A DNA stretch of 64,000 nucleotides, from IMG/VR virus record IMGVR_UViG_3300027659_000011, positions 64,413 through 128,412 of that record; one strand, given 5' to 3'. The first letter of the stretch is position 1. Each line of letters begins with the position of its first letter. The position numbers were made by a program, and so were the translations under genes. The notes under the pieces are model-generated. The model saw nothing but the letters and a program-made list of their open reading frames with translations, was not told where the DNA came from and made no database searches. Positions 3,481-64,000 of the stretch are shown here, one piece after another. The stretch comes from a virus.

Positions 3481-4533
3481 ATGGCTGTTATAACTGCTTT
3501 TGAACCATACTTACTTCAAACTAGTTCCATAATACCTGTACAGCCTGTTACATTTAATACAATGACTAACAGTAACCCAGTTTTTGTAGCATTAACCCAA
3601 ACTAACTCAACCATACCAGTAACCCCAATTAACCCTACCCAACAAGTTAATTTTAGAAACGCAAATTTTTCAGGCGGCTCAGCTAGGATTACAGAAGGTT
3701 TAACTATTACAGACGCTGGTAATACTATAAATCTAGGAGCTAATGCAACTGTTGAATTATGGTTATGGGCTGACGAACTTCCAACTGCTGCGTCTAATCT
3801 TATTATTCCTATTATTGCAAAACGTGATAATACAAGTACTTCACCACCTAACTGGTTATTTCTATACTTTGACAGTAACGGATATTTAACCTTACAAGTA
3901 TCTTCCGCCTCAGTTGCAGGAGCCTGGGGTTTATCACAAACAGGTACCAGAGGTATTAGTCCTGCAAGATGGAATCATATTGCTATAGTTAGACAAACTA
4001 CTTCAACTTGGACAGTATATCTTAATGGAGAGTTTTATTTAAGCGGTACTGTTGCAGGAGCTATTAATAATACTACTACTACATTAGTATTAGGAGCAGC
4101 AGATAGTACTCGGTCAGTAATTGGTACTATTGGAAGATTAAGTGGCTATATAGATGGTTTAAGAATAAATACTACAACTGCAGTATATACTTCTGCTTTT
4201 GCACCTACTTATACTATTGCTCCAACAGTTACTCAAGATGCAAATGTTTACAATAATCCAAGTGCAGCTATTGCGTCAGGTACTGTACTAGTATTCGACC
4301 CTCAGTTCGGAGGTACTTTTAGTGATTTAACAGGTACAACAAGAACATTTACTGGAGGATCCACACACTGGTTAACTCCTTTTGAAGGTGCAGTATCTAG
4401 CTCAGGCATAGCAAAACAAGTTGATCAAACTAATAAATCAATACCAGTAACCAACATATCTCCGTTTACACAAACTATTGGTGGCGGTGGTACTGTTGTT
4501 AGTGCTACTACTTTCACAGAAATGTGGATCTAA
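3481..4533 (+). CDS. LamG/concanavalin A-like lectin domain tail protein
   Basis: TVELW...WNHIAIVR...VYLNG...GYIDGLRI pattern typical of LamG domains. Confidence 0.75.
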   Translation: MAVITAFEPYLLQTSSIIPVQPVTFNTMTNSNPVFVALTQTNSTIPVTPINPTQQVNFRNANFSGGSARITEGLTITDAGNTINLGANATVELWLWADELPTAASNLIIPIIAKRDNTSTSPPNWLFLYFDSNGYLTLQVSSASVAGAWGLSQTGTRGISPARWNHIAIVRQTTSTWTVYLNGEFYLSGTVAGAINNTTTTLVLGAADSTRSVIGTIGRLSGYIDGLRINTTTAVYTSAFAPTYTIAPTVTQDANVYNNPSAAIASGTVLVFDPQFGGTFSDLTGTTRTFTGGSTHWLTPFEGAVSSSGIAKQVDQTNKSIPVTNISPFTQTIGGGGTVVSATTFTEMWI

Positions 4534-4539
4534 CTCAGA

Positions 4540-4578
4540 TTCCCGTACTCTAAGTTTTTAGGGGGCGGGAATTTTTTT
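4540..4578 (+). terminator. intrinsic terminator
   Basis: ttcccg...cgggaa stem followed by a T-run after the LamG gene. Confidence 0.6.
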
Positions 4579-4581
4579 ATC

Positions 4582-4610
4582 TTGACACTAATAGCCCAAC
4601 ATGGTATAAT
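4582..4610 (+). promoter_or_regulatory. consensus sigma70 promoter
   Basis: TTGACA-17 nt-TATAAT. Confidence 0.85.
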
Positions 4611-4672
4611 AGAACAAAATTATAGAGGCGTGCTGAATTTACGCTTAAAATATATTAAAGAAAGCGCCGATT

Positions 4673-5026
4673 ATGGAACCAAATGATTTTAATACGGGTT
4701 CAGGCATACTTGTAGGTCTAGGGTTTACTTTAATAAGTATCTCATTTGGCATACAACAATTGGTTAAAGCCTGGAGAAATAACGCAGCTGAGTCAGCTTT
4801 AGTAAAAATGATGCAAGAAGAGTTAGCTCGTATGAGTCAACAAAATACTGCTCTTTCTAATGAAATTGGAAATCTACAAACAGAATTAATTCGTTTGAGT
4901 CAACAATTAACTGATCTAACTATAGAGAATCAGAAACTACAATTAGAAGTTTCTATTTTGAACAAAGAAATTGCCAGACTACATATACTTATGTCTGGGC
5001 CTAATAGTATTGGAGCAAAGAAATGA
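4673..5026 (+). CDS. membrane-anchored coiled-coil protein
   Basis: N-terminal hydrophobic segment followed by heptad Leu repeats. Confidence 0.65.
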   Translation: MEPNDFNTGSGILVGLGFTLISISFGIQQLVKAWRNNAAESALVKMMQEELARMSQQNTALSNEIGNLQTELIRLSQQLTDLTIENQKLQLEVSILNKEIARLHILMSGPNSIGAKK

Positions 5027-5616
5027 CAACACCTGCAAAAATAAATTTTAAAGTTTATCAAGGCAGTACTTTTTCTGAGGTTCTAAGATGGGAAAGTCCT
5101 ACAAAAGTATATAAAAATATCTCTGCGATTACTCAAGCAGCTCCAATGGTTATTACTACTACTACAGCACACGGACTACCACCTAACTGGAGAATGAAAG
5201 TAACAAATGTGCTCGGTATGACAGATATTAACTCTACCGATAACTATCAAATAGCTACAGATGTTACTTCAACAGCAATTACTATAAACTCAATAAACTC
5301 TTTAAGTTATAAGACTTATATAAGTGGTGGTGTAGTAGAATATAATCAACCTGTAGATCTAACAGGATACACTGGTAGGATGCAGATACGATCTGATATT
5401 GACAGTGGGACAGTTATTGCAGAACTAACTACTGCTAATGGTGGTGTCTTAATAGATAACACTTTAAAAACTATTACTTTAACCTTACCCGCATTAACTA
5501 CAACAGGTTTTTTATTTACAACAGCAGTATACGATCTAGAACTAATATCCTCAGGTAACCAAGTAACTCAATTTTGCGGTGGTATTATAACACTGTTCAA
5601 AGAGGTAACTAGATGA
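5023..5616 (+). CDS. putative tail/baseplate adaptor protein
   Basis: YQGSTF...[14 protein letters not shown]...AVYDLEL motif family common beside phage fibre genes. Confidence 0.6.
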
Positions 5617-6944
5617 CCACTGAATTTATAGTAATTGAAACAGATAGTACCGAAACCGTATTAAATAATGATATTACTATAGTATTAGTAGACACTAATG
5701 TTTTACAAACTGTTATTGTACCAGTTACTGAAATAGTAGCTACACAACGAAAAGTTATTGAAACAGCTTCGTATATATCAGAATCAACAGTAGCCTTACA
5801 AACTACTGTACTATCTCCTGTAATTGCTTCAGGAGCACAAGGTCCACAAGGTCCACCAGGTAGAGATGGATCAGCAGTTGCTCAAGGATGGCAAGGTGCT
5901 ACAGGATCTGAAGGTGCCCCAGGACCTCCAGGAGGGCCTATAGGTGCTACAGGAGCTAGTGGTTTACAAGGCGAAATAGGTGCTACAGGTGCTACAGGTG
6001 CAAGTGGTGTTACAGGATTTACAGGTGCTACAGGTGCAAGTGGTGTTACAGGATTTACAGGTGCTACAGGTGCAAGTGGTGTTACAGGATTTACAGGTGC
6101 TACAGGTGCAAGTGGTGTTACAGGATTTACAGGTGCCACAGGTAGTTCTGGTATACAAGGTATACAAGGTATACAAGGTTATGTAGGTGCCACAGGTAGT
6201 TCTGGTATACAAGGATTTACAGGTGCCACAGGTAGTTCTGGTATACAAGGTATACAAGGTATTCAAGGTTATATAGGTGCTACAGGTAGTTCTGGTATAC
6301 AGGGCATACAAGGTGCCACAGGTGAAAAAGGTGATTCAGGTCTGGGCTTTTCAATAGCTAAGACTTATATTTCAGTAGCAGCTTTAATGGCCGATACTAT
6401 ACCCACAGGTATTTTAGTAGGTCAATTTGCTATAATTGATACTGGATCAGTAGAAGATCTTGAAACAAATAAATTATATATATGGACAGGTGTAGCTTAT
6501 AACTATATAAGTGATCTGTCTGGTGCTCAAGGTATTAAAGGTCATACAGGTAGTACGGGTATACAAGGTATACAAGGTTATATAGGTGCTACAGGCAGTA
6601 CAGGTATACAAGGTATACAAGGTACAACAGGTCCTCAAGGTACAACAGGTCCAATAGGTTATATTGGAGCCACAGGTAGTTCTGGTATACAGGGTATACA
6701 AGGAGCAACAGGCCCGCAAGGTATACAAGGTATACAAGGTGCAACAGGCTTGCAAGGTGCAACAGGCCCGCAAGGTGCAACAGGTTTTACTGGTGCAACA
6801 GGTTTTTCAAAGATTAGTGAAGCTACAGATGTTGATAAAGATCAACTAAGTGACGGCTCTTTATTAATTTATGATAATAATACGTCCAAGTGGACGACAA
6901 AGAAACTATTAGACTCACAATCGGTTGATTGTGGACTATTTTAA
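5613..6944 (+). CDS. collagen-like tail fibre protein
   Basis: Long Gly-X-Y tracts (GAT, GIQ, GPQ). Confidence 0.8.
5985..6128 (+). repeat. 4 perfect 36-bp tandem repeats ([12 protein letters not shown])
   Basis: acaggtgctacaggtgcaagtggtgttacaggattt x4. Confidence 0.9.
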
Positions 6945-6956
6945 AAGGACATATAA

Positions 6957-8993
6957 ATGGCTGCTATTTTAAAAATCAAGCGTGGTCTAACGAGTACTTC
7001 GATCCCCACGCTTGCAACAGGTGAACTTGGTTATTCAATGGGCGTTGGCACTAGTGCCAATGGTGGAGACAGGTTATACATAGGTACAGGAGTTGAAACC
7101 GCAGGAGCTGCAGCTAGTGTAGTTGCAATTGGTGGTAAATACTTTACTGAATTACTAAAACAAACTCCCGGTATACTCACAGCATCTGCTGCAATTATTG
7201 TAGATGCAAATAAAAAGATAGATGAATTATTAGTTGATAATTTATCTTTAAATGGTAATACTTTAAGCACTACAGATACTAACGGAGACTTATATTTAAA
7301 TCCTAATGGTACAGGTAGAGTTTCAATAGCTAATGCTTTTAAACTACCACGTACAGATGGTACAGCAAATCAAGTTCTAAAAACAGATGGTGCTGGTAAT
7401 GTAACTTGGGGCAGTGCTGCAGCAAGTGGCGTAACTTCTATTGATGCTAGTGGTGGTACTACAGGATTAACATTCTCTGGTGGGCCAATTACCTCAACCG
7501 GTACATTAACCTTAGCTGGTACTCTTGCAGTAGCCAATGGTGGTACTGGAGTAACTACTAAAACAGGTACAGGTTCAGTTGTTCTATCCGATAGCCCAAC
7601 TTTAGTAACTCCTAATCTTGGTACTCCAACTACTCTAGTCCTTACTAGTGCAACAGGATTACCAGTTGCAACAGGTATCTCAGGATTAGGTGCTGGTGTT
7701 GCTACTGCTCTTGCTGCAGCAACTGGAGCCGCAGGTGGATTTATTACTGTTGGTAGTGCATTAGGTACTCCTTCAAGTATTACACTTACAAACGGTACAG
7801 GCCTTCCTGTTTCAACAGGTATTTCAGGATTAGGTACTGGAGTTTCTACTGCTCTTGGAATTAATACTGGTAGTGCAGGTGCTTTCCTTGTTGATGGCGG
7901 TGCATTAGGTACTCCTTCTTCGGGTACACTTACAAATGCAACAGGTCTTCCAGTTGCAACAGGTATTTCAGGATTAGGTGCAAATGTTGCCTCCTTCTTA
8001 GCAACTCCTTCAAGCTCTAACTTAGCTGCAGCACTTACCACAAAAACTGGTACAGGCTCGGTGGTATTTGGAACATCTCCAACTATTACTACTAGCATTG
8101 TTGCTGGTGGAGCAAGTTTTGACTTATTAAATACTGTAGCAACTACAGTTAACTTTGCTGGTGCAGCTACTGCCTTAAGTATTGGTGCTATCACTGGCAC
8201 AACTACTGTTAATAATGATATTGTCTTAAAAGGCACTACAACAGTAGGTGGACACATCTTACCAGATGTTGATTCCGTAACTGATTTAGGTTCTAGTTCT
8301 AAACGTTTCCGTACTATATTCTTAAAAGGATCAACTATTGATCTAGGCGGAGCCACAATGTCTGGTTCTGCTGTTGGTGGCGTAACCATGACCAGCCTCA
8401 ATGGCACCCCTATCGGTGACGTTGTTCAAAGCACTGGTAAATTTACAACTTTAGAGAGTACTGGTAATGTCATAGTTGGTGGTAACTTAACAGTTAACGG
8501 AACTCTTACCTCCATCAACACAACAGCAGTTGAAGTTACTGATAAGACACTTGAACTTGGTAAAACAGTTACTCCAACAGAAGTTACTGCTAACGGTTCC
8601 GGTATCTTTGTAACAGGCACTAGTGAACACAGTTTCTTATACAACAGTACTACCACAAGCTGGAATTCCTCAGAACACTTAAATATAGCAACAGGTAAAG
8701 TATACGCAATTAATGGTGTATCAGTACTTGAAGCAACTACCCTAGGTACATCAGTTACTGGTTCTAGTTTAACTAGTGTTGGTATACTAACAACAGGTAC
8801 TTGGTCAGCAACTAATATTGCTATGAACAAAGGTGGTACAGGTTCTAGTTTAACAGCAGTTAATGGTGGTATTACTTACTCAACTGGTTCAGCACTAGCT
8901 ATTAGCGCTGCAGGTACTTCAGGTCAGTTTTTCGTATCAGGTGGAGCAGGTGCCCCAACTTGGACAGATACTATTGATGGTGGAACATATTAA
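6957..8993 (+). CDS. tail fibre-like protein
   Basis: IKIKR...LATGELGY N-terminus, internal LGTP..TL..TGLPV.TGISGLG repeats, IDGGTY C-terminus. Confidence 0.75.
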   Translation: MAAILKIKRGLTSTSIPTLATGELGYSMGVGTSANGGDRLYIGTGVETAGAAASVVAIGGKYFTELLKQTPGILTASAAIIVDANKKIDELLVDNLSLNGNTLSTTDTNGDLYLNPNGTGRVSIANAFKLPRTDGTANQVLKTDGAGNVTWGSAAASGVTSIDASGGTTGLTFSGGPITSTGTLTLAGTLAVANGGTGVTTKTGTGSVVLSDSPTLVTPNLGTPTTLVLTSATGLPVATGISGLGAGVATALAAATGAAGGFITVGSALGTPSSITLTNGTGLPVSTGISGLGTGVSTALGINTGSAGAFLVDGGALGTPSSGTLTNATGLPVATGISGLGANVASFLATPSSSNLAAALTTKTGTGSVVFGTSPTITTSIVAGGASFDLLNTVATTVNFAGAATALSIGAITGTTTVNNDIVLKGTTTVGGHILPDVDSVTDLGSSSKRFRTIFLKGSTIDLGGATMSGSAVGGVTMTSLNGTPIGDVVQSTGKFTTLESTGNVIVGGNLTVNGTLTSINTTAVEVTDKTLELGKTVTPTEVTANGSGIFVTGTSEHSFLYNSTTTSWNSSEHLNIATGKVYAINGVSVLEATTLGTSVTGSSLTSVGILTTGTWSATNIAMNKGGTGSSLTAVNGGITYSTGSALAISAAGTSGQFFVSGGAGAPTWTDTIDGGTY

Positions 8994-9054
8994 TTAAAAA
9001 ATATATACAGGTGATTTTTCACCTTTTAGATAACTTGCCTTTTTAGGATACTAA

Positions 9055-10836
9055 ATGTCTAATATTGCTCTTAAAAAATCTTCAGTAAGTGGCAGAGTGC
9101 CTCTTATTGGAGATCTAGCGTATGGGGAACTTGCGCTTAACTATGCAGATGGATTACTGTATTTTAAAAATTCTGTTAATCAAATAAAAGCTTTTAAGTC
9201 TAAAGGATTAGAAGTATCCAGTATTACTGGAACTACTCAAGGCACACCTTTTACAGAAGTAACAAGATTAGTATTTGATGAAGACACAGGGTTTAATTTA
9301 ACTGAATTGTCTGCTGGCGTAGTTAAGGTTGCATTAGGTTCTACATTTAAAACCTGGAAAATAACAGGGCAAAGTGATTTAGTAGCTGTAGGTGAAGATA
9401 CCATACAAATTGTAGCTGGTACAGGAATATCTCTTACCACAGATCCAAATTCAGCAATAAAAAAATTAACAATTAGTTCCACTGTCAGCGCAACCACAAC
9501 AGAATTTGCTTTTCAAAATGTAGGCTTTAACTACTCAGTTACTGGATTTGATGATACTACGTATCCCACACTAACTTTAGTTAGGGGAGAGTTATACTAC
9601 TTTAATTTTACTAATGTTAACAGCACTCATCCGATTGCATTGAGATTAGACAGCGGTAGTGTTTCTCCAGTACCTGGTACTACAGGAAATAACCCTACTT
9701 CAGGGGTTTACGGAAATGGTACAACATCAACAATAGTAGCATATCAAGTACCTCTTGATGCGCCTGCAGTAATATACTATCAATGCGTATTCCACTCTGG
9801 AATGATTGGTGAAATTAACATTATTGGTGGTGGTAGTGTAAGATCAACCAGTGTGGTAAGTGCCAACGGTTTCGCAGGAACAGTAGCAACAAGTACTACA
9901 ACACCAGCTATTACAATTACCACTAGTATAAATGGTATACTAAAAGGTAATGGTACCGCATTATTATCTGCCTCAAGTGGTGTTGATTATGCTCCTGGTA
10001 CTAGTACACTAGCAACTGGTATTATTAAAAGTACAACTGCTACAGGTGTATTGACAATTGCTGCTGCAGGAACTGACTATCAGGCTCCAATAGGCACAAT
10101 TACAGGATTAGTTAAAGGTAATGGAGCAAATGCTCTTACTTCTGCTATAGCCGGTACTGATTATCAGATTCCAATAGGCACAATTACAGGATTAGTTAAA
10201 GGTAATGGAGCAAATGCCCTTACTGCTGCTATAGCTGGTACTGATTATCAGTCAGCACAGAGTGTTAGTGGTATTGTAAAGTCAAGCGGTACAACCCGTT
10301 CAGCAGCAATAAGTGGCGTTGATTATGCCCCTGGTACTAGCACACTAGCAACTGGTATTATTAAAAGTATAACTGCTACAGGTGCATTAACAATTGCTAG
10401 TGCAGGGACTGATTATCAAGCTCCAGTGAGTGTTACAGGTATTTTAAAAAGTAGTGGTGTAAGCGGTAATGTTAGTGCGGCTATAGCCGGTACAGATTAT
10501 CAAACACCTATTACATTAACTACAATTGGATCAAGCGGTGCAGCTAGTTTAATTGGTAATATTTTAAATATACCGCAGTACTCAGGAGGTAGCAGTGGTG
10601 GTTTAGCTGATGCATTTAGCACTTTAGCAGTTAATGGGCAAACAAGTTTAGTAGCAACAGGACAATCAACGTTACAAATTGTTGCAGGACCTGGTATTAT
10701 AATTAATACTAATAACGCAATAAGTCCAAAAAGTTTAACATTAACAAGTACACTTCAAGGGATCAATTTAGATGGCGGACGCCCTGATTCTGTTTATGGT
10801 GGTTCACCCTTAATTGATGGTGGGGGAGTAATTTAA
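9055..10836 (+). CDS. tail fibre-like protein with cupredoxin-like insert and AIAGTDYQ repeats
   Basis: LAYGELALNYADG N-terminus; HP...YYQCVFHSGM motif; repeated AGTDYQ. Confidence 0.7.
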   Translation: MSNIALKKSSVSGRVPLIGDLAYGELALNYADGLLYFKNSVNQIKAFKSKGLEVSSITGTTQGTPFTEVTRLVFDEDTGFNLTELSAGVVKVALGSTFKTWKITGQSDLVAVGEDTIQIVAGTGISLTTDPNSAIKKLTISSTVSATTTEFAFQNVGFNYSVTGFDDTTYPTLTLVRGELYYFNFTNVNSTHPIALRLDSGSVSPVPGTTGNNPTSGVYGNGTTSTIVAYQVPLDAPAVIYYQCVFHSGMIGEINIIGGGSVRSTSVVSANGFAGTVATSTTTPAITITTSINGILKGNGTALLSASSGVDYAPGTSTLATGIIKSTTATGVLTIAAAGTDYQAPIGTITGLVKGNGANALTSAIAGTDYQIPIGTITGLVKGNGANALTAAIAGTDYQSAQSVSGIVKSSGTTRSAAISGVDYAPGTSTLATGIIKSITATGALTIASAGTDYQAPVSVTGILKSSGVSGNVSAAIAGTDYQTPITLTTIGSSGAASLIGNILNIPQYSGGSSGGLADAFSTLAVNGQTSLVATGQSTLQIVAGPGIIINTNNAISPKSLTLTSTLQGINLDGGRPDSVYGGSPLIDGGGVI

Positions 10837-12293
10837 TGGCAATTCAGGTTCAACTAAGACGCGGCACTGCAGCACAATGGTTTAGTGTCAACCCTATTCT
10901 TCAAGAAGGTGAGCTTTGCGTAGAATTAGATACACAAAAGTTTAAGATTGGTAATGGAATATTAGCTTGGAACTCCTTACCGTATGCTTCAGGGCCACTA
11001 GGTGCTACTGGTATACAAGGTCCACAAGGTAATGATGGTAACTTTGGCGGTTCATCGTTTGACTATACATTTGTTACTGATACAACAGATAGTGATCCTG
11101 GAGTAGGAAAATTAAAACTCAATAATGTTGCACTAAATCTTGCAACAATAATGTGGATTGACGATGTAAGTGATACTGCCGTAGATATTCAGGAATATTT
11201 AAGAACTATTGATAATTCTTCTTCTACTATAAAAGGTCACTTTAGAATTTCTAAGAAACTTAATGCTCAGGCATTTGCATTATTCGCAATATCTTCAATT
11301 AACGAAGGCGAAGGGTTTTTTCGTATAAATTCTTCTTTTGTTAGTGCAAGTGTTAATAGCCCTTTTGCAAATCTTGATGATGTAATTATTACTTTTGCTA
11401 GAACGGGTCTTCAAGGTGCTCAAGGTATTCAAGGTCCTCAAGGTAGTCAAGGTCTTCAGGGTTATTCAGGTGCAACAGGTCCACAAGGTATTCAAGGTAT
11501 TCAAGGTATTCAAGGTGTCAAAGGTGATCAAGGTATACAAGGACCTATAGGTAACGGATTTCCTTTTATAATCACTACTAGAAATTATACCGCAGATGGT
11601 ACTACAGCTACATTTGCTGTATCTGCAAATTTAGGAGCTAATAATTTATTAGTAACTGTTAATAATTCAATATTAAGACCCGCTATTGATTATACGGTTT
11701 TTAATAATAATATAGGCTTTACAGTAACCCCTACTAATGGAAGTCTAATTGTAATTAGAGAAATGCTTGGTGATGGCCCTCAAGGCGCTACAGGTAATGC
11801 CTCAATAGTACCAGGACCTCAAGGCTCCGTAGGACCTCAAGGCGATAACGGAGCAACTGGACCACAGGGTGCTACAGGTGCTCCTTCAATAGTACCAGGT
11901 GCTACAGGTACAATAGGTGCCACAGGTACAATAGGTGCCACAGGTATCATAGGGGCAACAGGAGTACAGGGTATTCAAGGACCAATTGGTCCAGTAGGTA
12001 CTACTCCCTACAGCATGGTAACAGAAGCTTTTACAGCAAATGGAAGTACAAATACTTTTACAATTAATCCTAACTTAACTGCTAATACTATTTTTGTGTT
12101 AGTTAATGGTGTAGTATTAAGACCTATTACTGATTATACCGTTTCTGGAACTACTTTAACAATTATTTCTCCGACACTAAATAGTGGAGCTCAGATAGTT
12201 GTCCGAGAGCTATTAGGTGACTCAGTAAGTGCTGAATCAATAGCACAAACTGCCACAGATTTAGCAATTGTAATGGCAATTGCACTAGGATAA
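10836..12293 (+). CDS. collagen-like fibre with Mtd/hyaluronidase-type N-terminal domain
   Basis: QLRRGTAAQW..NPIL..GE...ELDT.KFKIGNG...W..LPY followed by Gly-X-Y tracts. Confidence 0.8.
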   Translation: MAIQVQLRRGTAAQWFSVNPILQEGELCVELDTQKFKIGNGILAWNSLPYASGPLGATGIQGPQGNDGNFGGSSFDYTFVTDTTDSDPGVGKLKLNNVALNLATIMWIDDVSDTAVDIQEYLRTIDNSSSTIKGHFRISKKLNAQAFALFAISSINEGEGFFRINSSFVSASVNSPFANLDDVIITFARTGLQGAQGIQGPQGSQGLQGYSGATGPQGIQGIQGIQGVKGDQGIQGPIGNGFPFIITTRNYTADGTTATFAVSANLGANNLLVTVNNSILRPAIDYTVFNNNIGFTVTPTNGSLIVIREMLGDGPQGATGNASIVPGPQGSVGPQGDNGATGPQGATGAPSIVPGATGTIGATGTIGATGIIGATGVQGIQGPIGPVGTTPYSMVTEAFTANGSTNTFTINPNLTANTIFVLVNGVVLRPITDYTVSGTTLTIISPTLNSGAQIVVRELLGDSVSAESIAQTATDLAIVMAIALG

Positions 12294-58966: not shown

Positions 58967-59094
58967 TATTTCTGGGTTTTAGTATCTATGTACCATTTAA
59001 CGTCTTCTTTATATATTTGCCATACAGAAATACTTATTACTAATAATATTTCAAGTATAAAGATAATAGTTATTATTGAGCCTAATATTGTCAT
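58957..59094 (-). CDS. small single-TM protein (45 aa)
   Basis: ATGA overlap with uvsE stop; hydrophobic N-terminal half. Confidence 0.4.
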   Translation of the reverse strand: MTILGSIITIIFILEILLVISISVWQIYKEDVKWYIDTKTQKYWR

Positions 59095-60098
59095 ACATGA
59101 CCTATTTCTTCTGCAAACTGTCTACTGGCTGTATTCTTTTGTTTAGACTCACACATAATGTCTGCTGACTCTAAGAAAGTTCCAGCCCACTGATTAACTT
59201 CTTTGTTCCAGTAAAATTCTGAATGTGCACGAAGTTTAGCTGAGGTAAAACCCTGTGATTTGAGTTCACGAAAGTCTGGGCGAGTTTGTCCACAATGATC
59301 AATGAGTATGTCTTCTCTGCTAATAGAGTAGTGAATAACTGGTCTGACACCACGCCATGAATCTTGAATTCGCTTAACCTTAGGGTCATTTGGCTGAATA
59401 TACTCACCACTAGCAATCCAGTGATGATGAATGTCAAGAACTAAGGCACAGTGGTCTACTAATTCTAGTGAGGCATCAATACCCCATGAGAACTCTGCGT
59501 TCTCGATGGTAAGTGTATTACGTGCTTCGGGTGTTAGTCGCTTTAGAGCTGAGATAATCCCTTTGGGACCTTGTTTGCCACCTACGTGTACATTGCATTT
59601 AAAGTCTTGAAACTTACGACCGTAACCCATGTAACGAATAATATCTGCATGATACTCAAACTCAGTAATTGACTTTTCAACTGTGCCTTCATTATCTGAG
59701 GCAAGCACACAAAACTGACCTGGATGAAAGCTAACGCGTACATCTGCTGCACGGAACTTATCACCGATACGGGAAAGATTCTTTTCTAGAAAGTCTACTA
59801 CATCTGCTTGGAAGTAGAACCACATCCAGTCATCGTGTGAATATCCAGTAAGTAGATCACTACTTAATCTAAACATACGTAGACCTGCGGGTTGTTGTGC
59901 CATCCAGTCAGCTTGATTTTCAAGAGCTTGAATATTAGTACGCATCAAAGCCCATAGTCTTTCAGCAGCTATGTCTTTAGATTGCTTATTAAGCCATGTG
60001 ATGGTAGTGCCTTTAGTTTGGCAATTCACTACATCTGTAGATTCTGAACTTTGAATTTTACACGCAAAGCCAACGCGTTTTTGATTTTGATTAAACAT
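59091..60098 (-). CDS. uvsE: UV damage endonuclease
   Basis: FRLSS, R.SFHPGQF.VL.S, NVH.GG, IEN.E, LDIHHH, HYS, AHS, DIMCE.K.K. Confidence 0.92.
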   Translation of the reverse strand: MFNQNQKRVGFACKIQSSESTDVVNCQTKGTTITWLNKQSKDIAAERLWALMRTNIQALENQADWMAQQPAGLRMFRLSSDLLTGYSHDDWMWFYFQADVVDFLEKNLSRIGDKFRAADVRVSFHPGQFCVLASDNEGTVEKSITEFEYHADIIRYMGYGRKFQDFKCNVHVGGKQGPKGIISALKRLTPEARNTLTIENAEFSWGIDASLELVDHCALVLDIHHHWIASGEYIQPNDPKVKRIQDSWRGVRPVIHYSISREDILIDHCGQTRPDFRELKSQGFTSAKLRAHSEFYWNKEVNQWAGTFLESADIMCESKQKNTASRQFAEEIGHV

Positions 60099-60105
60099 AG
60101 TAGTT

Positions 60106-60134
60106 ATTATACTAAATTCAACCTCTCAAGTCAA
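60106..60134 (-). promoter_or_regulatory. sigma70 promoter of uvsE
   Basis: TTGACT-17-TATAAT. Confidence 0.8.
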
Positions 60135-60219
60135 GAGAGTAATTTGAAGACCGGCCCAAGCAACCATTAAACGTTTTTTACTGTAATAGTGTGTTTACTT
60201 TGTCGCTGGGCTGCTTCAA

Positions 60220-60693
60220 TTATCGTATAATACCTTTTTCTAGTCGCTCAGATACTAAGCGAGCATATCCAGCAATATCAACCCAGCTATCTGCATAGTC
60301 TGGTCGGCCGTTTAAGATGCGCGCTATTTTGTGCACTATCATCTCTAAACTTTCCTGTTGATCTGCATCCATATTTTCCCAGCTTGGCGCAGCGTGTAGA
60401 ATTTCTTTAAGGTTTTGTGTAATGGTTGCCATATCAATAAATGGACCATAATTTTTTGCACGTTCGTCTAAAATATTTAGAGTAGAATCTTCTTCATACT
60501 CGTCATCAGCAAATACAAATGTTGCACCACCCGTAGTTCCTGGCATAGGAATAGTAATAGTATCTGTACTGTTATTAGCTGTAATAAAAGTAGGAGAATA
60601 CATTGTATTATCTATTTTAGGTCCCTGCTCTGGTTTGGAAGTAGGAAAGGGCCAGTTTGGCCATACTTGGTTTAATTCTAGTTCTTTTGTCAT
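60220..60693 (-). CDS. DUF6378-like protein
   Basis: L.ER...YG.F, MI.HKIARI.NG.P...DSW.DIAGYA.L. Confidence 0.7.
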   Translation of the reverse strand: MTKELELNQVWPNWPFPTSKPEQGPKIDNTMYSPTFITANNSTDTITIPMPGTTGGATFVFADDEYEEDSTLNILDERAKNYGPFIDMATITQNLKEILHAAPSWENMDADQQESLEMIVHKIARILNGRPDYADSWVDIAGYARLVSERLEKGIIR

Positions 60694-60931
60694 AATTTTA
60701 TATATTAAGGATTAGTATAAGATTCATAGAACCTTATAATAATCCCTCCTAAGAGGAATTACCGTACATGCTTTCTGCAAAAAGACTCACAGTACTACAT
60801 TCAGTCTGTCCCGCTCAGCCGTGCAGGGCTATGCTTCGATGATGAATTGTAAGGATTAGGATTAATTTGAAAACGCAGGCAAAGCTCAAATCCTGCGCAA
60901 TAAGTAATTATACCCGAATTCTTCTGTCAGG

Positions 60932-61126
60932 TCAAGAGTATTTTTCCGGAGCCCTTAGCAGAGCAGGTAATTGTTTCTTAGTTTTAATCTGTTTTATTAA
61001 TTCAGGATTAATACCGTACAGAGTATTAACTGATCCCGCTGCTTTTTGATATTTTTCGTAAACAGGTAAGAGCTGATCAAGTATTAATAATTCTAACTCT
61101 TTAACGTAAGTATGTGAAGAATTCAT
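60932..61126 (-). CDS. hypothetical protein
   Basis: 64 aa, AAGG RBS, own promoter. Confidence 0.55.
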   Translation of the reverse strand: MNSSHTYVKELELLILDQLLPVYEKYQKAAGSVNTLYGINPELIKQIKTKKQLPALLRAPEKYS

Positions 61127-61147
61127 ATGGTACCTTTAGTTTGCCCT

Positions 61148-61176
61148 ATTATATCACTGTTACCTGTTAGTGTCAA
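61148..61176 (-). promoter_or_regulatory. sigma70 promoter
   Basis: TTGACA-17-TATAAT. Confidence 0.85.
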
Positions 61177-61214
61177 TACTAAAAATTTTTATCCTATAAT
61201 TTTATAGGCAAAAC

Positions 61215-61244
61215 AAAAGCCCCAGAACGAATCTTGGGGCTTTT
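61215..61244 (-). terminator. intrinsic terminator ending the long ncRNA
   Basis: aaaagcccca...tggggctttt. Confidence 0.8.
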
Positions 61245-61249
61245 GAAAG

Positions 61250-62110
61250 TATTTGCTGTTGCAACAGCGTTATCTTTTTTAACTCTAGCAGGGCTTTTAA
61301 GGGAATCACCACGACCTGACCTTAAACTGTAGCACGTTGGCTACTTACAACCTTTGGTGATGAGTCCATCGCGAGGCTGTTTAAGTGAGTGTTGCACGTT
61401 TCAGTCCTTTCGCTACCAACGCATAGGATATCCGTGACTAACTATACCATGTCAACCTCTACAGTAAACCATGTAGGTAGACTGTTGGGTATGCTTGGCA
61501 ACTGGTTTAACGACTTGCGGGTCGGGAGTGTGTTTACGAATCTGCCCAAACGACTATTTTTTCAATTATTTTAAAGACCCGCTACAGTTCAGGGTCTAAA
61601 GTATTAAAGTGTTTCTCCCGTATACTTCGTCAGGGGACTAGCCCTGTAACGTGGACAAGTTCGACTACTTAATATTTTGCGACCCTGCAGTTTAGGGTCG
61701 ATGCGCACCATTATTTAATTACCCTTGCTAGGTATCGCTAGTGAGATTCCATACTCACATTACAGTCACTAAAGTCTGCTCTTGGTTAGAAGATAGCTGT
61801 ATTTGAAAGAGTTCTTTCTCTGGAGTTCCTACCTTGTTGTCACTCCGAACCAGCTTTAGCTTTACGATGCCATCGGCATAAGGCAATAACGCTACCTTGC
61901 ACTCATCGAATAATTTTATACTCTATTATTATATGAGTCTTGCTATTGTTTCGGCTCGCAACAAGAACGAGCATTTTGAAGGCTTAACCTTGACTCGTAG
62001 CGTCTAATACATTAAGTTGAAAGGGTGAAAGTCTTAATGTATTAGATACTGCTAGAGTTTCGCCTAAATTACATAGGCTCATCAGAAGGTTTCTTATTAT
62101 TATCAATTTA
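61250..62110 (-). ncRNA. large structured non-coding RNA (about 860 nt) with 5' hammerhead
   Basis: No minus-strand ORF in the track, own promoter and terminator, many hairpins and long-range complementarities. Confidence 0.7.
61986..62091 (-). ncRNA. type I hammerhead ribozyme
   Basis: AACCTT-CTGATGA-GCCTA/TAGGC-GAAA-CTC...GAG-TC^AAGGTT; cleavage predicted between 61992 and 61991. Confidence 0.88.
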
Positions 62111-62117
62111 TGTATGA

Positions 62118-62146
62118 ATTATACAGTAAATAAACATACAATTCAA
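62118..62146 (-). promoter_or_regulatory. sigma70 promoter of the long ncRNA
   Basis: TTGAAT-17-TATAAT. Confidence 0.8.
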
Positions 62147-62163
62147 GTAAATAATTTTATTCT

Positions 62164-62239
62164 TGGTACTCGGTACGGGATTCGAACCCATGTGAATGCC
62201 GTGAAAGGGCACGATCCTAGGCCGCTAGATGAACCGAGT
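62164..62239 (-). tRNA. tRNA-Glu (TTC)
   Basis: GTGCC-CTTTCAC-GGCAT, CCA encoded. Confidence 0.92.
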
Positions 62240-62246
62240 GTACGAA

Positions 62247-62545
62247 ATAGGCGGCAACTAGAGATTTCAGTCGTCATTAAAAACTTATCCAGCCACAAAG
62301 AGTTGGTCTCGGTTTACCTATAAATTAGTGCTATCGTGCCGATTCTGGAAGTAGCCGCTAAGCTCCCCAATGCCATTGGCAGTTATATCAGGATCAGTTA
62401 CTGGCAGTGCATGATCCGTTAGTCTAAGCGTCCTCAGCGCATACCTTGATAACACTAATTTATAAGTAAAGGGCTGTGGCTCGGGTAATTATTCCCCACA
62501 ATTAAGACGCATAACAGATAGATCCTGTTTCCGCTGTCGCCCTAT
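62247..62545 (-). ncRNA. candidate structured RNA (about 300 nt)
   Basis: Paired termini, 23-bp helix with two G-U pairs on the minus strand, own promoter. Confidence 0.6.
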
Positions 62546-62559
62546 CAATTTATATAATA

Positions 62560-62588
62560 ATTATACAGCGTTTAGCTATACATTTCAA
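62560..62588 (-). promoter_or_regulatory. sigma70 promoter
   Basis: TTGAAA-17-TATAAT. Confidence 0.78.
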
Positions 62589-62597
62589 GAAAAAAAT

Positions 62598-62724
62598 AAC
62601 AGTCGTTGCCACTATGAACTGGCTTCGCAGGTGTGTCGACATACAGTGACTGATTGGTGAGCGAAGAGATCGTTGACAAACGGGCAGCATTTTCATGCTA
62701 TTCATTAAGCCCTTCCCGACTGTT
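62598..62724 (-). ncRNA. candidate small structured RNA (about 127 nt)
   Basis: AACAGTCG...CGACTGTT closing stem, promoter just upstream, U-run downstream. Confidence 0.5.
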
Positions 62725-62732
62725 TATAAATA

Positions 62733-62762
62733 ATTATACAACATAATAGGCAATCAGATCAA
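62733..62762 (-). promoter_or_regulatory. sigma70 promoter
   Basis: TTGATC-18-TATAAT with extended -10 TG. Confidence 0.65.
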
Positions 62763-62834
62763 GTATAAATTTTTATACCTATTTTTTAAATGATGCTATT
62801 TTTGTACAAAATTTCTTAAATTTATTTAAAGTAT

Positions 62835-62863
62835 ATTATAATCTAAATTTACTTGAGTTTCAA
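62835..62863 (-). promoter_or_regulatory. sigma70 promoter
   Basis: TTGAAA-17-TATAAT. Confidence 0.65.
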
Positions 62864-62878
62864 GTATTAAATTTCTGT

Positions 62879-63058
62879 CTAAAAACTCCAGCCCGCTTCT
62901 TCTAAGGCTTCCTGTGCTACATCTTCTGGCGACATTCCGTGATTCCAACTACTCCAATAATCATAATCAGGTATATCTTCAATACCTAAACCACAACTAT
63001 TAATTACATGCTGGTTAACTACTTTCATCCAGTCTTCAAAAGCAATTTCTTTTTTCAT
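62879..63058 (-). CDS. small acidic hypothetical protein (59 aa)
   Basis: MKKEIAFEDWMK.V...GLG.EDIPDYDY..W..G.SP..A; AAGGA RBS. Confidence 0.6.
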   Translation of the reverse strand: MKKEIAFEDWMKVVNQHVINSCGLGIEDIPDYDYWSSWNHGMSPEDVAQEALEEAGWSF

Positions 63059-63076
63059 TGTGTTTCCTTTTAAAAA

Positions 63077-63184
63077 TTATTCTTGTATACTGATAGCTTC
63101 AAGATTTTCGGATAGCATTTCTCGGATAAGTTCATGAAGGTTTGAGAAGTCTCCGTAGAAAAAAGCCGCTTCAATTTCTGTCAT
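63077..63184 (-). CDS. small hypothetical protein (35 aa)
   Basis: GGAG RBS directly after promoter; MTEIEAAFFYG. Confidence 0.45.
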   Translation of the reverse strand: MTEIEAAFFYGDFSNLHELIREMLSENLEAISIQE

Positions 63185-63206
63185 TTGTTTCTCCAAATTA
63201 ATAACT

Positions 63207-63319
63207 ATTATACAAAATTTTTAAAAAAATTTCAATTTTATGATTTTTGCCGTTACAGCCTGTGGTTGGGTAGCGTGCGTAAAAATTAACTTGATTTTTA
63301 CAGCTAAAGAGCTTATAAT
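63207..63319. promoter_or_regulatory. divergent promoter pair
   Basis: Minus TTGAAA-17-TATAAT (63207-63235); plus TTGATT-17-TATAAT (63291-63319). Confidence 0.7.
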
Positions 63320-63352
63320 GTTATTTCGATTATTATTATTTTAAATAAACTC

Positions 63353-63640
63353 ATGGATATAGCAACTGCACTGGATGCTGGAACATTAGAATACTTAGCT
63401 GATGGCACACAAATGCCCCGTCCACCAACAGCTTTAGCTATAAGAGCAGCAAAACACATTCGTAACTTAGAGGGACAACATCAAGTGCATTTACAAGCAC
63501 TTATGCAATCTCAAAATAGAGAGGCTACCCTTCTACAAGATTTGGATAGCTGCAGACTAAAATTAAAGGAGTTAGATGCAGAGTTACAAAATCTTCGCAC
63601 ATCAGGATCGGCAACTAGCAGCATGGATAGTTCAAGCTGA
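63353..63640 (+). CDS. hypothetical coiled-coil protein
   Basis: 95 aa ORF after the plus-strand promoter. Confidence 0.6.
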   Translation: MDIATALDAGTLEYLADGTQMPRPPTALAIRAAKHIRNLEGQHQVHLQALMQSQNREATLLQDLDSCRLKLKELDAELQNLRTSGSATSSMDSSS

Positions 63641-63724
63641 AAGTTATCTAGAAGCAATAGAATTAGTTAGACAAGAAACAGAGATAACTTCGGCAATATT
63701 ATGTTTATTAGAGGAGAGTGCTAA

Positions 63725-64000
63725 ATGAATATCATAAAAGCAATAATCCTTTCTGCAACTTTAATTATACCAATTTTTATAGTTCAAAAAGCTTACGAAT
63801 TTAGGGTCAATCGTTTAGGTGAGTATAACCAGCAAACAACAAAAACTTTTAGTTCTGTTACGGAAATGGAAAGAGAACTAAAGTGTATGACTCGTAATAT
63901 ATACTACGAAGCTGGCAGTGAGCCAGTTGAGGGTAAGATTGCAGTAGCACAGGTAACATTAAATCGTGCAAAAGATGGCAGGTTTGGCGCAGGTATTTGC
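63725..64000 (+). CDS. SleB-like cell wall hydrolase (Hydrolase_2), truncated by the window end
   Basis: N-terminal TM then CMTRNIYYEAGSEPVEGKIAVAQVTLNR. Confidence 0.85.
   Translation, partial: MNIIKAIILSATLIIPIFIVQKAYEFRVNRLGEYNQQTTKTFSSVTEMERELKCMTRNIYYEAGSEPVEGKIAVAQVTLNRAKDGRFGAGIC

Follow-up and report, generated by a model that had tools for sequence, protein, structure and literature searches.

The window analyzed here is a 64,000-nucleotide (nt) stretch of viral DNA (positions 64,413 to 128,412 of IMG/VR record IMGVR_UViG_3300027659_000011) from an uncultured freshwater T5-like phage. On its minus strand, between a transfer RNA (tRNA) gene for glutamate (tRNA-Glu, 62239-62164) and an open reading frame (ORF) of 64 amino acids (aa; 61126-60932), lies a region that is probably the gene of a phage-encoded, self-processed, and very abundant structured RNA. 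The anatomy and processing that we propose for this RNA, in which a hammerhead ribozyme stands at the 5′ end of the transcript and is followed by a large folded body, are highly probable, and the body is most likely freed by this built-in hammerhead. The evidence consists of conservation, covariation, a canonical ribozyme core, transcription, and a step in abundance near the predicted cut. Cleavage itself, the chemical nature of the ends, and the role of the RNA are inferred.

An initial annotation, made from the sequence alone, had described at 61250-62110 a single non-coding RNA of about 860 nt with its own promoter and terminator. A real, conserved, and transcribed non-coding RNA was found there, and both signals were located (promoter, 62146..62118; terminator, 61245-61214), but the primary transcript of ~900 nt comprises two parts, the hammerhead and a body of ~780 nt. 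The limits of the unit also had to be widened: a promoter and a terminator delimit it here, but in 17 relatives it also takes in an upstream domain of ~170 nt (domain A). A transcript and covariation, on which the existence of the RNA had been made to depend, were both present, as metatranscriptome coverage and as compensatory changes.

The general features first attributed to the region were also recovered. On the minus strand, where no ORF of at least 60 aa had been noted, none was longer than 43 aa inside 61200-62110, and in 18 homologues no ORF was conserved (longest sense ORFs with a start codon, 20-71 aa). GC content was raised, with 0.43-0.47 over 61200-61900 vs 0.30-0.35 alongside. The 911-nt transcript was more structured than shuffled sequences, with a minimum free energy (MFE) of -256.9 kcal/mol vs -225.1 ± 8.6 kcal/mol (20 shuffles, z = -3.7).

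Conservation and fold of the RNA body

Relatives were obtained by anchoring on the UV-endonuclease gene (80 viral loci), by pattern scans for the hammerhead and for two invariant body blocks, and by a metagenome scan (26 contigs); one locus, L093, was left out as a chance pattern match. The RNA was present at 33 loci in uncultured freshwater phage contigs, which gave 18 distinct full sequences with lengths of 724-988 nt and identities of 46-99%. Among the 80 UV-endonuclease loci, the whole RNA occurred in L006/L007 and L014, and the hammerhead only in L009-L013; R1, a covariance model of the 5′ core of the body, gave no further match in these loci (887 kb). For cultured phages, a blastn search against 50,697 phage records matched tRNA-Glu only, and none of 185,579 species genomes contained an exact match to the pattern.

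The structure of the body was derived from RNAalifold together with mean pair probabilities, for which 17 sequences were folded one by one. The resulting 60 pairs, which form 12 helices, were 94.5% paired in 17 homologues, vs 29-41% in slid controls. Changes on both sides were observed in 18 pairs, compared with 5.0 ± 1.8 after shuffling (0 of 500 shuffles as high) and 3-7 in slid controls. The nearly invariant 5′ core, when aligned with R1 (32 matches, 26 distinct), was 97.3% paired, and compensatory change affected 14 of its 27 pairs vs 4.2 ± 1.4 after shuffling.

Two related hairpins had been recognized in the body, and both occur where they had been placed (G61699..C61681 and G61596..C61576). 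The perfect complementarity reported between the loop of the second and a downstream site (GCUACAGUU at 61333-61325) is part of a longer match, in which 61318-61333 and 61581-61596 are complementary over 16 nt (88%), and the other hairpin (61681-61699), as had been suggested, also pairs with the 61318-61333 site (15 nt at 87%). By our own arithmetic, a 9-nt complement is expected ~1.5 times by chance in 900 nt. The long-range helix itself (61596-61582 with 61332-61318) had a mean pair probability of 0.52-0.57 when 17 sequences were folded separately, and in 17 homologues 94-96% of the cells in its columns were paired. All 19 one-sided changes (19/19) retained a wobble pair on the RNA strand. 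This wobble pattern, which is specific to the RNA strand, favors the view that the long-range helix is selected as RNA.

The cloverleaf-like junction of the 5′ core (61797-61737) shares with tRNA only its topology, namely four helices with linkers of 0-3 nt, and it was not recognized by ARAGORN or by the tRNA model of Rfam. In the third hairpin of the junction, the unpaired positions 61759 and 61747 co-vary non-canonically by eye (U/A in 10, C/C in 5, and U/G in 2 sequences; n = 17); their joint change may reflect a tertiary contact or shared ancestry.

A hammerhead ribozyme at the 5′ end

The MFE fold of a 131-nt segment is exactly the three-way junction of a hammerhead (-31.4 kcal/mol vs -19.3 ± 3.2 kcal/mol, z = -3.8), and none of 200 shuffles (0/200) folded as well. 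The core of a hammerhead is defined by CUGANGA, GAAA, the pair A15.1-U16.1, and an NUH cut site. In the window, CUGAUGA and GAAA are both present, A62058 pairs with U61993, and C61992 follows. All 18 aligned sequences (18/18) had the same core save for position 7, which was U, C, or G; among them are two types with the ribozyme in another context (L010 and L012). The three helices contain 16 core pairs, which were 96.7% paired (25-46% in slid controls), and 9 of the 16 had changed on both sides; 0 of 500 shuffles reached the observed number of paired cells or the observed covariation score. Judged from this core, the transcript would cleave itself after C61992 and would leave a body with a 5′-hydroxyl (5′-OH) end.

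The hammerhead core lies 197-400 nt upstream of the anchor block in 27 of the 33 loci, and the other six have a flank of only 44-217 nt; the hammerhead is thus carried by all 27 loci with sufficient 5′ flank. With hammerheads of type I topology it shares the canonical CUGANGA/GAAA/GUC core and three covarying helices, whereas its stem III, unlike that of known hammerheads, has an extension of ~50-60 nt with a conserved loop. The core definition used here agrees with the accessible part of Perreault et al. 2011 (PMC3088659), according to which phage and prophage hammerheads are known and have been proposed to process long transcripts. Compared with the phage hammerheads in that part of the paper, the one in the window heads a large non-coding RNA and does not lie between genes.

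Near the 3′ end of the body, positions 61281-61291 form a perfect 11-nt complement to one strand of stem III (62049-62059), a pairing that would compete with the fold of the ribozyme. The complement is not kept in L014 or in the commoner L091-type sequences and was not counted as structure.

Abundance of the RNA in lake metatranscriptomes

Six RNA runs contained 58-76% of the sequence words sampled from the RNA stretch. Depth was determined by placing the assembled contigs of four lake metatranscriptomes, from four studies, on positions 59000-64000. Over the five bins that span 61171-62005, contig depth was 2,934-104,953 in 19 of 20 bin/run values, whereas all other bins had depths of 0-71, among them the hammerhead bin 62006-62172 (4-23), domain A (8-70), and the bin past the terminator (0-71). 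Depth thus fell ~1000-fold past the terminator, and the step between bins 61839-62005 and 62006-62172 was also ~1000-fold. The self-processing model predicts just such a change in depth, by two to three orders of magnitude, at the ribozyme on one side and at the terminator on the other.

The same trend was found in contigs identical to the window (61533-61763, depth 17,358; 61355-61764, depths 4,785 and 9,471), with flanks at 5-37, and the 3′ tail (61317-61212) itself was present at depths in the thousands. One contig passes into adapter sequence at 61981, which is 10 nt from the predicted cut on the body side, and another adapter junction, in a single contig, is at 61237. None of the contigs listed bridges 61992/61991, which is a weak hint only. 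A joint that skips 61627-61704 (78 nt) was observed at high depth (704-8,295) in all four runs; the contigs with this joint represent variants of the family from which one hairpin module is missing.

Modular organization of the RNA unit

In 17 loci (e.g., L091, 6094-6270), words of domain A preceded the hammerhead core by 127-169 nt, and no tRNA intervened. In 5 of the 33 loci (the window, L110, L007, L115, and L014), domain A and the hammerhead have tRNA-Glu between them, and in the window a second promoter separates them as well. The exceptions are L111, with domain A at -282; L105, L117, and L118, from which the exact words are missing; and L123, which is without upstream flank. From this placement across loci, the commonest unit consists of a promoter, domain A, the hammerhead, the body, and the terminator. 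The short form of domain A was represented in RNA contigs by a joint from 62292 to 62471 (depth 20-63).

When R1 was run over 23 whole records, four matched. The first match (L129, record G023, 116 bits) is a known L007-type copy, and L131 is a divergent full unit. L130 (1290-2045) is a body without domain A or hammerhead that begins directly at its own promoter. It belongs to the complete record G001, in which a lone hammerhead (L010, 4158-4990) is found in the tRNA region, ~18 kb from the body, and closes a non-coding stretch of ~630 nt after a tRNA. The fourth match (L132, 1520-1700), from a more distant phage, is a mini form of ~170 nt in which a single hairpin and the four-way junction are followed at once by a terminator; it comes after a small ORF and lacks a hammerhead. 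These forms indicate that the modules are separable and that the junction is their common denominator. That L130 starts at a promoter without a hammerhead fits the view that the hammerhead defines the 5′ end of a body derived from a longer precursor.

Hairpins resembling the T arm of tRNA, with loops of the GGUUCGA.UCC type, were observed at differing variable places of the relatives (L123, ~260-330; L014, ~800-830; L130, ~1365-1385; L010, ~4495-4525).

Proposed maturation and role

According to our model, host RNA polymerase would begin at the promoter 62146-62118 or would read through from the upstream promoter of domain A and tRNA-Glu. The hammerhead (62091-61986) would fold first and cut after C61992, so that the leader would be discarded and a body of ~780 nt with a 5′-hydroxyl would be left, its transcription continuing to the intrinsic terminator (61245-61208). 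The body would then fold into the cloverleaf-like junction, one to three GACCCUAAAC hairpin modules, the long-range helix closing a domain of ~250 nt, and the 3′ core, and in this folded state it would build up far above neighboring transcripts.

Several observations weigh against this model. The body structure was counted on the sequences from which it had been derived, the R1 alignment was fitted to R1, and much of the body is too conserved for covariation. The 61318-61333 site has a rival local partner with a U-A to C-G switch, which by eye is carried by an AUCACC/GGUGAU pairing. The fold of the 3′ core is only partly solved: RNAalifold gave 21 pairs, and additional helices drawn manually were inconsistent with the alignment columns. 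With the Rfam model Hammerhead_3, the window gave a partial match (62052-62096) of 18.3 bits, vs a gathering score of 48.5 bits, and the homologues L091, L103, L111, and L117 gave no hammerhead match at E ≤ 1; the low score is probably due to the long insert in stem III and the open stem I. In one run (X14), depth was 0 in bin 61839-62005, which holds the predicted cut. Contig depth, which comes from RNA runs only, reflects expression poorly and does not resolve exact ends, and in the most conserved bin it sums over related phages.

As to function, the RNA could possibly act in trans during infection, alongside the phage tRNA and tmRNA (transfer-messenger RNA) genes, as a binding platform (scaffold or sponge) that takes up a protein or further copies of the RNA; this tentative reading is the kind of role proposed for GOLLD and ROOL. 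It is rather unlikely that the RNA represents a third, unrelated class of giant phage RNA, made by a ribozyme, in which the repeated GACCCUAAAC hairpins and the single antisense copy link copies of the RNA into a multimer or titrate a phage regulator that reads their word in promoter DNA (an operator decoy) and the junction engages tRNA or the translation machinery.

Few bacterial or phage RNAs as large and conserved as this one are known; GOLLD and ROOL are two of these and form RNA-only nanocages. The window RNA adds a family from another phage lineage, one that probably has a clean mode of processing and that reaches extreme abundance in lake communities in nature. Its core also occurs alone in a compact form (L132), and the RNA is a well-defined target for cryo-electron microscopy and infection studies. 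It would also be a naturally occurring case in which a hammerhead matures a non-coding RNA instead of cleaving between genes.

A repeated 10-nt word and possible DNA signals

The GACCC..AAAC hairpins of the body are copies of a 10-nt word that recurs outside the RNA, so the complementarity noted for them is a feature of the family and not of this copy alone. The word, GACCCTAAAC, had 12 matches in the window with at most one mismatch (3.2 expected) and seven exact copies in the record (0 for the reversed control), some of them inside genes. Sites include 23431, 57978, 61587, 61690, and 63799 on the minus strand of the window, among others, and 8668, 10092, and 10863 on the plus strand of G000. 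The word also occurs after the stop codons of small GcrA-like genes (e.g., G000, 9791-10090), of which this phage has four paralogues at 9.8-16.3 kb (Pfam GcrA match with E = 8.6e-4, under the family cut-off). The 18 RNAs contain 30 sense and 15 antisense copies, vs 0.19 after shuffling; these RNAs are homologous, and hence the copies are not independent. In L130 (1240-1290) and L131 (845-895), two inverted copies of the word flank the RNA unit's promoter or overlap with it. The word resembles an operator or the boundary of a cassette. Its copies in the RNA gene are possibly DNA sites; another possibility is that the RNA presents the word, either to act as a decoy or as a module for pairing with itself.

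If all the conserved features were DNA signals (operators, injection-stop signals, or origin-like elements, as for the T5 region), the RNA would be incidental. The excess of the word outside the RNA and its inverted pairs at the promoters of L130 and L131 agree with such signals, and there is a precedent in T5, whose conserved untranslated region of 1.66 kb was interpreted as DNA signals (Davison, bioRxiv 10.1101/866236, in the part available). That region, regarded as an injection stop signal, resembles the present one in being ORF-free, more than 1 kb long, conserved, rich in repeats, and found in T5-like phages; unlike the window RNA, it is read in the same part of the paper as DNA signals with DnaA boxes. 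No homology was found between the two: the best score of R1 on T5 4000-12000 was 10.6 bits (E = 0.55), blastn gave no match, and by inspection none of nine raw matches of the hammerhead core pattern in T5 had a stem II hairpin. The very high transcription of the stretch, the presence of compensatory and wobble-only changes specific to the RNA strand, and the attached ribozyme also argue against DNA signals, which are quite improbable as the whole explanation.

Comparison with known large RNAs

The initial annotation could not assign the RNA to GOLLD or ROOL, and our Rfam 15 scan agreed, with no match to GOLLD, ROOL, or group I/II introns. Rfam families gave no match to the body in the window, either at gathering thresholds or at E ≤ 10 (only tRNAs, the tmRNA, and the weak Hammerhead_3 match were obtained), and no family matched the divergent loci L091, L103, L111, and L117 at E ≤ 1. 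The RNA is a new family of the GOLLD/ROOL kind, matched by no described family.

GOLLD and ROOL are described, in the accessible parts of PMC12286853 and PMC5737381, as RNAs that are large, phage-borne, tRNA-adjacent, and abundant, have an unknown function, and assemble into cages made of RNA only. The 5′ part of GOLLD is variable and at times holds tRNAs (PMC12286853, same part). The window RNA resembles GOLLD (RF01998) in its size, its occurrence in a phage near tRNA genes, its abundance, and its variable 5′ part able to hold a tRNA. Unlike GOLLD, it has a 5′ hammerhead and a different conserved core, and it does not match the GOLLD covariance model. With ROOL (RF03087) it shares the same setting, and in one strain ROOL was reported to be comparable in abundance to rRNA (PMC12286853, accessible part); the ROOL covariance model is also unmatched, and the mature body has ~780 nt vs an average of 581 nt in ROOL. 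That the RNA is a divergent member of either family, beside tRNA genes, is very improbable. A location in a phage, at 2-10 kb from a tRNA array and with a tRNA within the unit, would suit such a member, as would the size range and the high abundance, but neither model was matched in the window or in the four divergent homologues at the thresholds given above, and the parts of the GOLLD and ROOL papers available to us mention a hammerhead for neither family.

In the literature, no description of the window RNA was found, and pieces of it may be contained in the supplements of Fremin et al. 2023 or Weinberg et al. 2017. The former (PMC10690425) reports, in its accessible part, 8,495 phage candidates with an average length of 67 nt.

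Improbable readings: circularization or a leader function

A body excised at two hammerhead-like sites and circularized, as in viroids or retrozymes, would explain the stability of the RNA. The cleavage-site word (UUAGGGUC, then AGG) does recur in the 3′ core of L091-type relatives, where by inspection the strands of the ribozyme could pair. In the window, however, stem I pairing at the second site amounts to only ~3 bp (by inspection), no back-joint 61318/61991 was present among the joints of four RNA runs, and a search of the phage record gave no RtcB or Rnl2-type ligase. The depth of the 3′ tail also argues against circles, and excision of this kind is most improbable.

A cis-acting leader, or long 5′ untranslated region, of the downstream 64-aa gene has next to no probability: the RNA and the gene are adjacent and on the same strand, but a strong terminator, at which depth drops ~1000-fold, and a perfect 12/12 promoter (61176..61148) intervene, and L091-type relatives have a different, convergent downstream neighbor.

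Genomic setting and coordinates

The source record has 128,412 nt, of which the window is the right half, and is rated complete by CheckV. The phage genes include a family A DNA polymerase, many tail-fiber genes, and a UV-damage endonuclease. Twelve tRNA genes and a permuted tmRNA (13 tRNA/tmRNA genes) are located at 52-62 kb of the window, with tRNA-Glu adjoining the promoter of the RNA. The features of the RNA gene are listed in Table 1.

Table 1 Features of the RNA gene and its upstream region, in window positions
Feature	Position	Strand	Description or evidence
Upstream domain A	62247..62545	-	Window copy of ~300 nt, with insertion of ~178 nt (62293-62470); ~170 nt in relatives
tRNA-Glu(UUC)	62164..62239	-	Between domain A and hammerhead; same insertion in 5/33 loci
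Sigma-70-type promoter, TTGAAT-17-TATAAT	62118..62146	-	10/12 matches; serves hammerhead-plus-body transcript
Hammerhead ribozyme, open at stem I	61986..62091	-	First ~105 nt of transcript
Hammerhead stem I	62091-62086 with 61991-61986	-	Six pairs
Hammerhead CUGAUGA core	62085-62079	-	Read from sequence and fold
Hammerhead stem II	62078-62062	-	Five pairs
Hammerhead GAAA	62061-62058	-	Core element
Hammerhead stem III, long, with 16-nt loop	Loop 62032-62017	-	MFE fold
Predicted hammerhead cut site, GUC	C61992/A61991	-	Cut after C61992
Mature body, ~780 nt, from predicted 5′-OH end to terminator U tract	61212..61991	-	18 distinct homologues, covariation, depth
Nearly invariant 5′ core	61728..61858	-	Two hairpins and cloverleaf-like four-way junction; model R1, 133.7 bits
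Hairpins of 5′ core	61845-61823, 61822-61807	-	Covariance model
Closing stem of four-way junction	61797-61794 with 61740-61737	-	Covariance model
Hairpins of four-way junction	61793-61780, 61779-61762, 61758-61741	-	Three abutting hairpins, cloverleaf-like
First GACCCUAAAC hairpin (second in the initial annotation)	61680..61700	-	Word in 1-3 sense copies in 17/18 homologues
Second GACCCUGAAC hairpin	61575..61597	-	5′ half and loop (61596-61582) are 5′ arm of long-range helix
Antisense copy of word, GCUACAGUUUAAGGUC, 3′ arm of long-range helix	61318..61333	-	Inverted repeat I3; closes domain of ~250 nt
Conserved 3′ core, fold partly resolved	61275..61447	-	Stem 61438-61433/61398-61394; short helix 61316-61314/61294-61292
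Intrinsic terminator, 11-bp stem, 10-nt loop, then U tract	61208..61245	-	Arms 61214-61224 and 61235-61245, 100% complementary (inverted repeat I6)

Transcription from the promoter at 62118-62146 would start ~7 nt downstream of TATAAT, and by eye this promoter arrangement is kept in L007 and L014. The stem pairs of the terminator covary among homologues; it was absent from the list of a simple terminator scan because its loop has 10 nt. An 11-nt box, ATAAATTGATA, follows both the promoter of the hammerhead-plus-body transcript and the one upstream of domain A (62101-62111 and 62543-62553, minus strand), and these are its only two exact copies in the window.

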